This document shows positions 5,767 to 6,648 of a stretch of DNA of 64,000 bases, one piece after another. The stretch comes from Escherichia coli (GTDB taxonomy: Bacteria > Pseudomonadota > Gammaproteobacteria > Enterobacterales > Enterobacteriaceae): NCBI RefSeq assembly GCF_003991155.1, contig NZ_CP031293.1; one strand, 5' to 3'. The notes beneath the pieces were generated by a model. That model was not told the origin of the DNA, searched no databases, and saw only the letters and a program-made list of their open reading frames with translations. Position numbers and translations under genes: made by a program. Each line of letters starts with the position of its first letter. Positions within the stretch are counted from its first letter, which is position 1.

Positions 5767-5801
5767 TACTGGGGGGTAGTATCAGGTACTGGGGGGGAGT
5801 A
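5767..5801. promoter_or_regulatory. RcnR operator: two TACT-G6/7-N-AGTA sites in the rcnR-rcnA intergenic region
   Basis: tactggggggtagta (5767-5781) and tactgggggggagta (5787-5801), matching the known G-tract operator architecture. Confidence 0.75.
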
Positions 5802-5838
5802 GAATCAGATTGCCGAATTAATACTAAGAATTATTATC

Positions 5839-6648
5839 ATGACCGAATTTACCACTCTTCTTCAGCAAGGAAATGCCTGGTTCTTCATCCCCAGCGCCAT
5901 CTTACTTGGTGCGCTTCATGGCCTGGAACCAGGGCACTCAAAAACGATGATGGCGGCGTTTATCATCGCCATCAAAGGCACCATTAAACAGGCGGTGATG
6001 CTCGGACTGGCAGCAACCATTTCGCATACCGCGGTGGTCTGGTTGATTGCCTTTGGCGGGATGGTGATCAGCAAACGTTTTACTGCTCAATCTGCAGAAC
6101 CGTGGCTCCAGTTGATTTCCACGGTGATCATTATTGGCACCGCGTTCTGGATGTTCTGGCGTACCTGGCGCGGCGAACGCAACTGGCTGGAGAATATGCA
6201 CGAGCACGAGCACGAGCACGAGCACGAGCATGATCATGAGCATCATCACCATCACGAACATGGCGAGTATCAGGATGCCCATGCACGAGCCCATGCCAAT
6301 GACATTAAAAGACGATTTGATGGTAGAGAGGTCACCAACTGGCAAATTTTGTTATTTGGCTTAACCGGTGGCCTTATCCCCTGCCCGGCAGCAATTACCG
6401 TGCTGTTGATTTGCATTCAGTTGAAAGCCCTGACACTGGGCGCAACACTGGTCGTCAGTTTTAGCATTGGCCTGGCGTTAACGCTTGTCACCGTAGGCGT
6501 TGGCGCAGCAATCAGCGTTCAGCAGGTCGCAAAACGCTGGAGCGGATTTAACACTCTCGCTAAACGCGCTCCCTATTTTTCCAGTCTGTTGATTGGCTTA
6601 GTTGGTGTGTATATGGGCGTACATGGCTTCATGGGCATAATGCGATAA
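5839..6648 (+). CDS. rcnA: Nickel/cobalt efflux transporter RcnA
   Basis: 269 aa membrane protein with an internal His-rich loop (HEHEHEHEHEHDHEHHHHHEH). Confidence 0.95.
   Translation: MTEFTTLLQQGNAWFFIPSAILLGALHGLEPGHSKTMMAAFIIAIKGTIKQAVMLGLAATISHTAVVWLIAFGGMVISKRFTAQSAEPWLQLISTVIIIGTAFWMFWRTWRGERNWLENMHEHEHEHEHEHDHEHHHHHEHGEYQDAHARAHANDIKRRFDGREVTNWQILLFGLTGGLIPCPAAITVLLICIQLKALTLGATLVVSFSIGLALTLVTVGVGAAISVQQVAKRWSGFNTLAKRAPYFSSLLIGLVGVYMGVHGFMGIMR
6199..6240 (+). repeat. Coding hexanucleotide tandem repeat (CACGAG x5 plus CATGAT, CATGAG) encoding the His-Glu repeats of RcnA
   Basis: Read directly from the sequence. Confidence 0.9.

Follow-up and report, generated by a model that had tools for sequence, protein, structure and literature searches.

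The nickel/cobalt efflux locus of Escherichia coli contains two kinds of simple-sequence tract, runs of G in the operator and a hexanucleotide array within the coding sequence of rcnA, and it raises the question of whether these tracts vary in length between strains and, if they do, by what process and to what effect. We examined this in a 64,000-nt stretch of an E. coli genome (contig NZ_CP031293.1; hereafter, the window) and surveyed the variation in 5,426 complete E. coli genomes, partly via evenly spaced samples of the matching rows. Our main reading, to which we give a probability of about 0.9, is that the stretch represents the standard rcnR-rcnA-rcnB nickel/cobalt efflux locus of E. coli and that the variability of both the array and the G-runs is real.

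The identity of the three genes was established from protein family models (Table 1). RcnR scored 197.3 bits against the NCBIfam equivalog NF011613 (cut-off 138); RcnA scored 546.9 bits against NCBIfam NF007454 (nickel/cobalt efflux transporter; PRK10019; cut-off 195) and 227.7 bits against Pfam PF03824 (NicO); RcnB scored 67.8 bits against Pfam PF11776 (RcnB). Positions 5440-6660 are 100% identical to the corresponding sequence of E. coli strain 2016C-3878 (NZ_CP029747.1), where RefSeq names the genes rcnR, rcnA and rcnB, and the region was found in 5,369 of the 5,426 complete genomes. Resistance to nickel and cobalt by efflux is attributed to RcnA of K-12 by Rodrigue et al. (2005), as cited by other authors.

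Table 1. Features of the rcnR-rcnA-rcnB locus and sites of published typing primers, in window coordinates
Feature	Position	Strand	Basis
rcnR, Ni(II)/Co(II)-responsive repressor, 90 aa	5446..5718	-	ORF; NCBIfam equivalog NF011613; RefSeq annotation in NZ_CP029747.1
rcnR-rcnA divergent intergenic region, 120 nt	5719..5838		120/120 identical to K-12 MG1655
RcnR operator site 1, TACT-G6-T-AGTA, TACTGGGGGGTAGTA; G6 run 5771-5776	5767..5781		published consensus match
RcnR operator site 2, TACT-G6-G-AGTA, TACTGGGGGGGAGTA; G7 run 5791-5797	5787..5801		published consensus match
rcnA, Ni/Co efflux protein, 269 aa	5839..6648	+	ORF; NCBIfam NF007454; Pfam NicO
CVN007 forward primer, exact match (0 mismatches)	6099..6119	+	primer: PMC8143711 Table 1
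O157 VNTR-19/TR7 forward primer, homologous site; 4 mismatches in window, 0 in O157:H7	6121..6156	+	primer: PMC8461963
(CACGAG)5, perfect hexanucleotide array encoding (His-Glu)5; copy-number-variable part	6199..6228	+	TRF; allele comparison
Degenerate His-codon tract CATGATCATGAGCATCATCACCATCACGAACAT (HDHEHHHHHEH)	6229..6261	+	loop sequence comparison
O157 VNTR-19/TR7 reverse primer, homologous site; 3 mismatches in window, 1 in O157:H7	6359..6387	-	primer: PMC8461963
CVN007 reverse primer, exact match (0 mismatches); amplicon 6099-6452, 354 bp	6432..6452	-	primer: PMC8143711 Table 1
rcnB, periplasmic accessory protein of efflux system	6867..7205	+	Pfam RcnB PF11776; RefSeq annotation

The operator lies in the spacer between the divergently oriented rcnR and rcnA, beside the gene for its own repressor. 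PMC3902906 and PMC7055735 describe the RcnR sites as two tandem TACT-G6-N-AGTA elements in the rcnR-rcnA intergenic region; apo-RcnR occupies both and represses rcnA as well as rcnR until it is released by Ni(II) or Co(II). An earlier note on this DNA had pointed to two operator sites with tracts of six and seven G; both were found where it had placed them, both match the published consensus, and they are spaced 20 nt start to start. The G7 run of site 2 is the consensus G6 followed by a G at the N position. From the tandem type 1 operator of Iwig and Chivers (2009), as the same two papers cite it, the operator of the window does not differ. The whole 120-nt spacer has the sequence of K-12, the strain used to characterise the operator, so the operator in the window is not unusual; judged by this identity, RcnR would be expected to bind here. 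Runs of six or more G or C number only 11 in the 64-kb window, the two operator runs included. A promoter scan of positions 5650-5900 returned a sole match, TTGCCG-16-TATTAT at 5810-5837, which we dropped as implausible: it ends 1 base before the rcnA start codon.

The second tract is found in the part of rcnA that encodes the His-rich loop. Here, too, the earlier note read the sequence correctly, as five copies of CACGAG followed by related units. Tandem Repeats Finder (TRF) reported a period of 6, 7.5 copies and a score of 69 for this repeat; this is one of two matches in the window with a score of at least 50, and (CACGAG)5 is the only perfect tandem array in the 64 kb with four or more copies of a 4-9-nt unit. 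The product of the array, HEHEHEHEHE, occupies residues 121-130 of RcnA, directly after Met120. A hydropathy scan places it in a hydrophilic stretch (residues ~108-169) between hydrophobic segments at ~88-107 and from ~170 onwards, and within this stretch the His-Glu array is bordered by Arg/Lys-rich sequence. A central His-rich loop is part of the described architecture of RcnA (PMC11247825). The 23-residue tract of the window protein contains 13 His. The note's statement that the K-12 loop has a different length also held: the His tract measures 78 nt in the 274-aa protein of K-12 and 63 nt in the 269-aa protein of the window.

We then looked at loop length across the species. Among 40 genomes spread evenly over the matches, match lengths differed from the window by -18, 0, +14, +15, +16, +30, +42 or +54 nt. 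The class at +15 nt, which is the offset of the 274-aa alleles, accounted for 33 of the 40. Representatives that were fetched encode RcnA proteins of 263, 269, 274, 283 and 287 aa, and one is a pseudogene. E. coli alleles differ in how many His residues the tract encodes, from 9 up to 22.

The allele class of the window was surveyed separately. A search with window positions 6150-6300 as query (E <= 1e-30) returned 149 genomes, of which 60 evenly spaced rows were inspected. Four copies of CACGAG were the most frequent state (34 rows, matched span 145 nt), followed by the five copies of the window (16 rows, 151 nt) and by three copies (5 rows, 139 nt); seven copies (163 nt) and two copies (133 nt) were each seen in one row, and two rows matched by the right half only, corresponding to n=1. 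The one further row, with a span of 148 nt, is strain 32F4, which has a distinct 66-nt allele without the array. The band of matches with at least 99% identity holds 43 genomes, and since it takes in up to four partial n=1 matches at 100% identity, the five-copy allele is present in about 39-40 genomes. Copy numbers were also read directly from the sequences: 1 in LF82, 2 in WP4-S18-ESBL-09, 3 in CE10, 4 in ST648 (strain 20), 5 in the window and 7 in AF10. In these alleles every difference falls inside the pure CACGAG array. Thus, the earlier note's expectation that repeat counts differ between strains is borne out, and identical counts across strains, the outcome that would have spoken against it, were not what we found.

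How do the copies come and go? For several matches with n=3, 4 or 7, the identity value is explained by the gap alone, with zero SNPs in 151 nt, a pattern that fits gain and loss of units in place. The array most likely gains and loses whole units by replication slippage, to judge from the pattern of copy numbers; each event would add or remove His-Glu dipeptides and would never break the reading frame. A different account is that loop-length diversity comes mainly from recombination between divergent rcnA alleles, that is, from horizontal replacement. It would explain why allele classes are tied to broad lineages and are many substitutions and complex indels apart, and it could draw on the genomes with n=4, most of which have one extra SNP relative to the window flanks (95.4% identity, where the gap alone would give 96.0%). 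Yet within the class only the number of units differs, several times with no flanking SNP at all, and in the clonal O157:H7 lineage described below the copy number spans 4 to 11. Recombination is relevant between allele classes and not within them, and we consider it unlikely to be the main source of the diversity.

O157:H7 carries a separate array, (GACCAC)n, in the middle of the loop. From 324 genomes, 60 rows were sampled, and copy numbers from 4 to 11 were observed: six copies, the state of EDL933, in 24 rows, seven in 12, four and eight in 5 rows each, five in 4 rows, and nine, ten and eleven in one row each. By comparison with these two classes, four sequenced 274-aa alleles contain no hexamer more than twice, i.e. 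they have no pure array. In the data examined, loop length varied where a pure hexamer array existed. The differences between the K-12-type, O157-type and CACGAG-type loops themselves consist of substitutions and larger indels, for which simple unit slippage is no explanation.

Comparison of the window with strain 298, whose 274-aa allele has an 84-nt tract, suggests how the CACGAG class may have arisen. Relative to that tract the window is without 39 nt that lie between two copies of CATCATCACC: the 274-aa alleles have two copies of this sequence 39 nt apart, while the window has a single one, at 6241-6250. CACGAG is present once in the allele of strain 298 versus five times in the window. 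The window allele thus appears, on comparison of the two sequences, to derive from an allele of the 274-aa type, in which 39 nt would have been lost between the CATCATCACC direct repeats and CACGAG would then have expanded from one copy. The allele of LF82, which has the 39-nt deletion and n=1, is a plausible intermediate.

Repeat variability of the rcnA loop is not new: strains of E. coli, Salmonella and Klebsiella are already typed by it. The array has identical head-to-tail units, a copy number that varies between strains within conserved flanks, and a published typing locus, as expected of a coding VNTR. In E. coli the locus is CVN007 of the generic MLVA scheme (Lindstedt et al. 2007; GECM-7/GECM-10), the primers of which bracket the His-rich loop (Table 1). 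We had also considered CVN014, the most variable of the generic E. coli loci, as the rcnA repeat locus and dropped it, as the primer table puts CVN007 around the loop. The published CVN007 score is calculated as (product size minus 314)/18, which gives about 2 for the 354-bp product of the window and about 3 for the 369-bp product of the 274-aa allele; in a Swedish survey the commonest scores were 3 (83%) and then 2 (13%). CVN007 records overall length in 18-bp steps, whereas the series to which the window belongs consists of 6-bp CACGAG units with n=1-7, and therefore the scheme cannot resolve it.

The O157:H7 array is likewise known. In O157:H7 rcnA the PulseNet VNTR-19/TR7 primers of PMC8461963 flank the loop, at 774-809 and 1054-1082 of our O157:H7 sequence (L006), and PMC3321953 describes VNTR-19/TR7 as a 6-bp repeat in ORF Z3274, with 9 alleles and 3-11 copies. 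It resembles the array of the window in being an in-frame 6-bp repeat in the same rcnA loop, and its published range of 3-11 copies compares with the 4-11 counted here. The two differ in unit, position and allele class: GACCAC (Asp-His) in mid-loop for VNTR-19/TR7, CACGAG (His-Glu) directly after Met120 for the window. That some lineages have a pure array and the common 274-aa allele has none accounts for the information the marker gives in O157:H7 and in CACGAG-type strains and for its near-monomorphic state in other lineages.

Related repeats occupy the same loop in other species. STTR5, which belongs to the standard five-locus MLVA set for S. Typhimurium, is a CACGAC hexamer of His codons in yohM (= rcnA), the Salmonella enterica orthologue, where it falls in the loop that joins the two halves of the protein. 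In that species the unit encodes His-Asp and 8-14 repeats are common (PMC5183578), whereas the window class encodes His-Glu with 1-7 copies. The rcnA VNTR varies in Paratyphi A, too. In Klebsiella pneumoniae, MLVA locus 27 is a 6-bp repeat, present in 0-19 copies in rcnA, the putative gene for nickel/cobalt efflux; its unit is CATGGT in place of the CACGAG of the window. Pure hexanucleotide arrays arise easily in the RcnA loop because it consists almost wholly of CAY (His) and GAN (Asp/Glu) codons.

The operator runs were analysed with queries that differed from the usual sequence by one base in a single run and were otherwise identical over a context of 91-93 nt, and exact matches were counted. 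At site 2, where G7 is usual, G8 was found in at least 93 genomes and G6 in at least 118; at site 1, where G6 is usual, G7 was found in at least 36 and G5 in at least 26. These counts are lower bounds because any SNP in the flanks removes a genome from the band of at least 99% identity. The four variants together account for about 5% of genomes and each for 0.5-2.2%. The G-tracts, which the earlier note had likewise supposed to vary, thus do so, with alleles one base shorter and one base longer at each run. The searchable literature contained nothing relevant on G-run or homopolymer variation at the rcnA operator, and these alleles are possibly the only undescribed detail of the locus.

One-base differences in homopolymers may also be errors of sequencing or assembly, an explanation that could extend to repeats in general and concerns, above all, the G-runs. 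Many of the genomes with variant runs are long-read assemblies of CDC and USDA series, which counts in its favour. We therefore took as a control a coding C7 run in a DUF4132 gene (window positions 19801-19807), a region present in 422 genomes and with close flanks in 60. C6 was observed in 3 of these 60, a proportion similar to that of each operator variant; one-base homopolymer differences thus occur elsewhere at a few percent, although 60 genomes are too few for a precise background. With the control rate this close to the operator rate, frequency alone is no proof that the operator variants are real, and we used concordance with lineage instead.

A 4,093-nt query of the O121:H19 haplotype matched ten genomes at 100.0% identity, and all ten have the G8 length at site 2. 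They comprise RM8352, five CDC strains, 16-9255, FWSEC0006, GTVSS-020 and ML775, designations that point to several independent collections. In the 18 genomes that follow, which match at 99.8% identity, the sequence is one base shorter. An allele common to all ten genomes of the haplotype is inherited and not assembly noise. A second haplotype group with the G8 length includes PCN061, H2 and two others. The list of genomes with G6 at site 2 contains several named O111, together with O157:H7 strains EC4115 and SS17; the recurrence of O111 again argues against error. As to the hexamer arrays, their length differences amount to 6-24 nt, recur in dozens of genomes per allele and agree with PCR fragment lengths in the MLVA literature. 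For the O121:H19 G8 allele, as for the hexamers, artefact is excluded, and it is possible for scattered single genomes; as an explanation for the strain differences overall we regard it as very unlikely.

At least some G-run alleles are thus inherited and clone-stable, as is typical of ordinary indel polymorphism and not of rapid phase variation. A phase-variable promoter would show frequent reversible change within a clone, and the uniform G8 of the ten O121:H19-haplotype genomes does not, although with few genomes per clone this is a weak test. The operator runs, too, change by single bases, though slowly, and their inherited variants can extend over a whole clone. As read from the sequence, the alleles shift the TACT-to-AGTA half-site spacing from 7 bp to a predicted 6 or 8 bp. 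Type 1 sites of the family have been reported with spacings of 6-9 bp, a range that takes in both values. Length variants at site 1 also move the 20-bp phasing of the two sites.

The earlier note suggested that changes in the tracts could alter regulation or metal-binding capacity. Could selection maintain such tracts as a contingency system, in which mutable sequences are kept and lineages retune to their niche the efflux set-point, through operator spacing, and the metal capacity of the loop, through the number of its His residues? The independent origin of hexamer arrays with different units at one place in the protein (CACGAG in the window, GACCAC in O157, CACGAC in Salmonella, CATGGT in Klebsiella) would fit this proposal, as would the range of His counts among E. 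coli alleles and half-site spacings that stay within the limits of the family. The authors of PMC5183578 speculated that extreme STTR5 lengths might impair Ni/Co resistance, and suggested a functional constraint. Against this, the G-run alleles are clone-stable, unlike those of true phase-variable promoters; codon composition alone predicts recurrent arrays in any tract rich in His, Asp and Glu; and a pure array is absent from the commonest E. coli allele, the length of which is common to most of the genomes sampled. Selection of this kind seems to us distinctly unlikely, and the array lengths and G-run alleles are read here as real polymorphism of a standard efflux locus.

A related and, in our view, improbable proposal is that the one-base operator alleles and the loop alleles with 9-22 His amount to heritable settings of nickel/cobalt efflux that would matter for fitness and differ between lineages. 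The alleles concerned would be G8 at site 2 in the O121:H19 haplotype, G6 at site 2 in several O111 and some O157:H7 genomes, and G5 or G7 at site 1. If this were true, the settings might act via the affinity of RcnR or via how the two sites are phased, and in this way on basal expression of rcnA. The practical weight of our observations is small, given that the locus, its operator and the repeat variability of the His-rich loop are all established. Nevertheless, natural alleles with half-site spacings of 6, 7 and 8 bp, carried by well-studied pathogen clones, provide a ready series for work on G-tract length and recognition by RcnR.

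In strain XSLGL-2 (NZ_CP187522.1), rcnA (positions 500-1336 of the extracted sequence L005) carries a 93-nt His tract, which exceeds that of K-12 by 15 nt; the annotation marks this gene as a pseudogene interrupted by an internal stop, and its translation ends after 243 aa. The loop allele of strain 32F4 (NZ_CM147846.1, sequence L012) is 66 nt long, HEHDHEHHHHDHGHHHHHEHGE, and looks like a derivative of the 84-nt tract that has undergone an 18-nt internal deletion. This allele shows that the loop is also subject to deletions outside pure arrays. Strain NJS001 harbours an O157-type rcnA allele with (GACCAC)8 at 49431-49634 of a 438,722-bp record (NZ_CP114132.1). 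The size of this record (438.7 kb) suggests that the allele may be the sole site counted as plasmid-borne in the genome searches.

In strain CH4784 (NZ_CM166352.1), the thiD-rcnR-rcnA-yehA stretch of the thiD-yehA region is broken by an IS1A-family transposase, and the match to the 4,093-nt O121:H19 query consists of two pieces spanning 4,870 nt. In O157:H7 strain 611, DNA just past the rcnR stop codon (L006 1-98, approximately window 5340-5445) is unlike both K-12 and the window, and no TPP riboswitch annotation was found within 100 nt. Based on the unrelated sequence and the absent annotation, it seems that in the O157:H7 lineage, too, the thiM-rcnR gap is rearranged or occupied.

The DUF4132 gene contains two C7 runs. 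The second of them, which served as a homopolymer control, is shortened to C6 in 3 of 60 genomes with close flanks (MRY15-131, UID2309220003 and UID2309220009); this is a frameshift or else an error of assembly. The window's version of this gene segment is confined to 422 of the 5,426 complete genomes. The longest G/C homopolymer of the 64-kb window is a C8 (3123-3130) located inside the HNH endonuclease ORF.

Features of the integrative element, the adjoining riboswitch and the DUF4132 gene (window coordinates)
Feature	Coordinates	Strand	Remarks
Resolvase-type recombinase (element)	1313-1864	plus	
HTH protein (element)	2031-2531	minus	
HNH endonuclease (element)	3031-3756	minus	
Tyrosine integrase (element)	3885-5222	minus	
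TPP riboswitch copy	5259-5354		Rfam TPP, 61.3 bits
DUF4132 ORF	16385-20185		1,266 aa; C7 runs at 16606-16612 and 19801-19807

The thiM TPP riboswitch is the insertion place of a 7.7-kb integrative element whose right end occupies window 1-5357. Both flanks of the element carry a perfect 82-nt direct repeat, the copies being 7,732 bp apart (4105-4186 and 11837-11918 of sequence L009); the window copy lies at 5276-5357, and K-12 homology starts at the same position, 5276. The repeat covers most of the TPP aptamer, and the insertion leaves two copies of the riboswitch. Directly downstream of the rcnR-adjacent copy, in the usual place of thiM, lies the integrase gene, while thiMD is found behind the other copy. 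Among the 5,426 genomes, 167 share the integrase-riboswitch-rcnR junction. It is possible that the integrase is under TPP control. A riboswitch that serves as an integration site, together with an integrase that may respond to TPP, may merit separate study.
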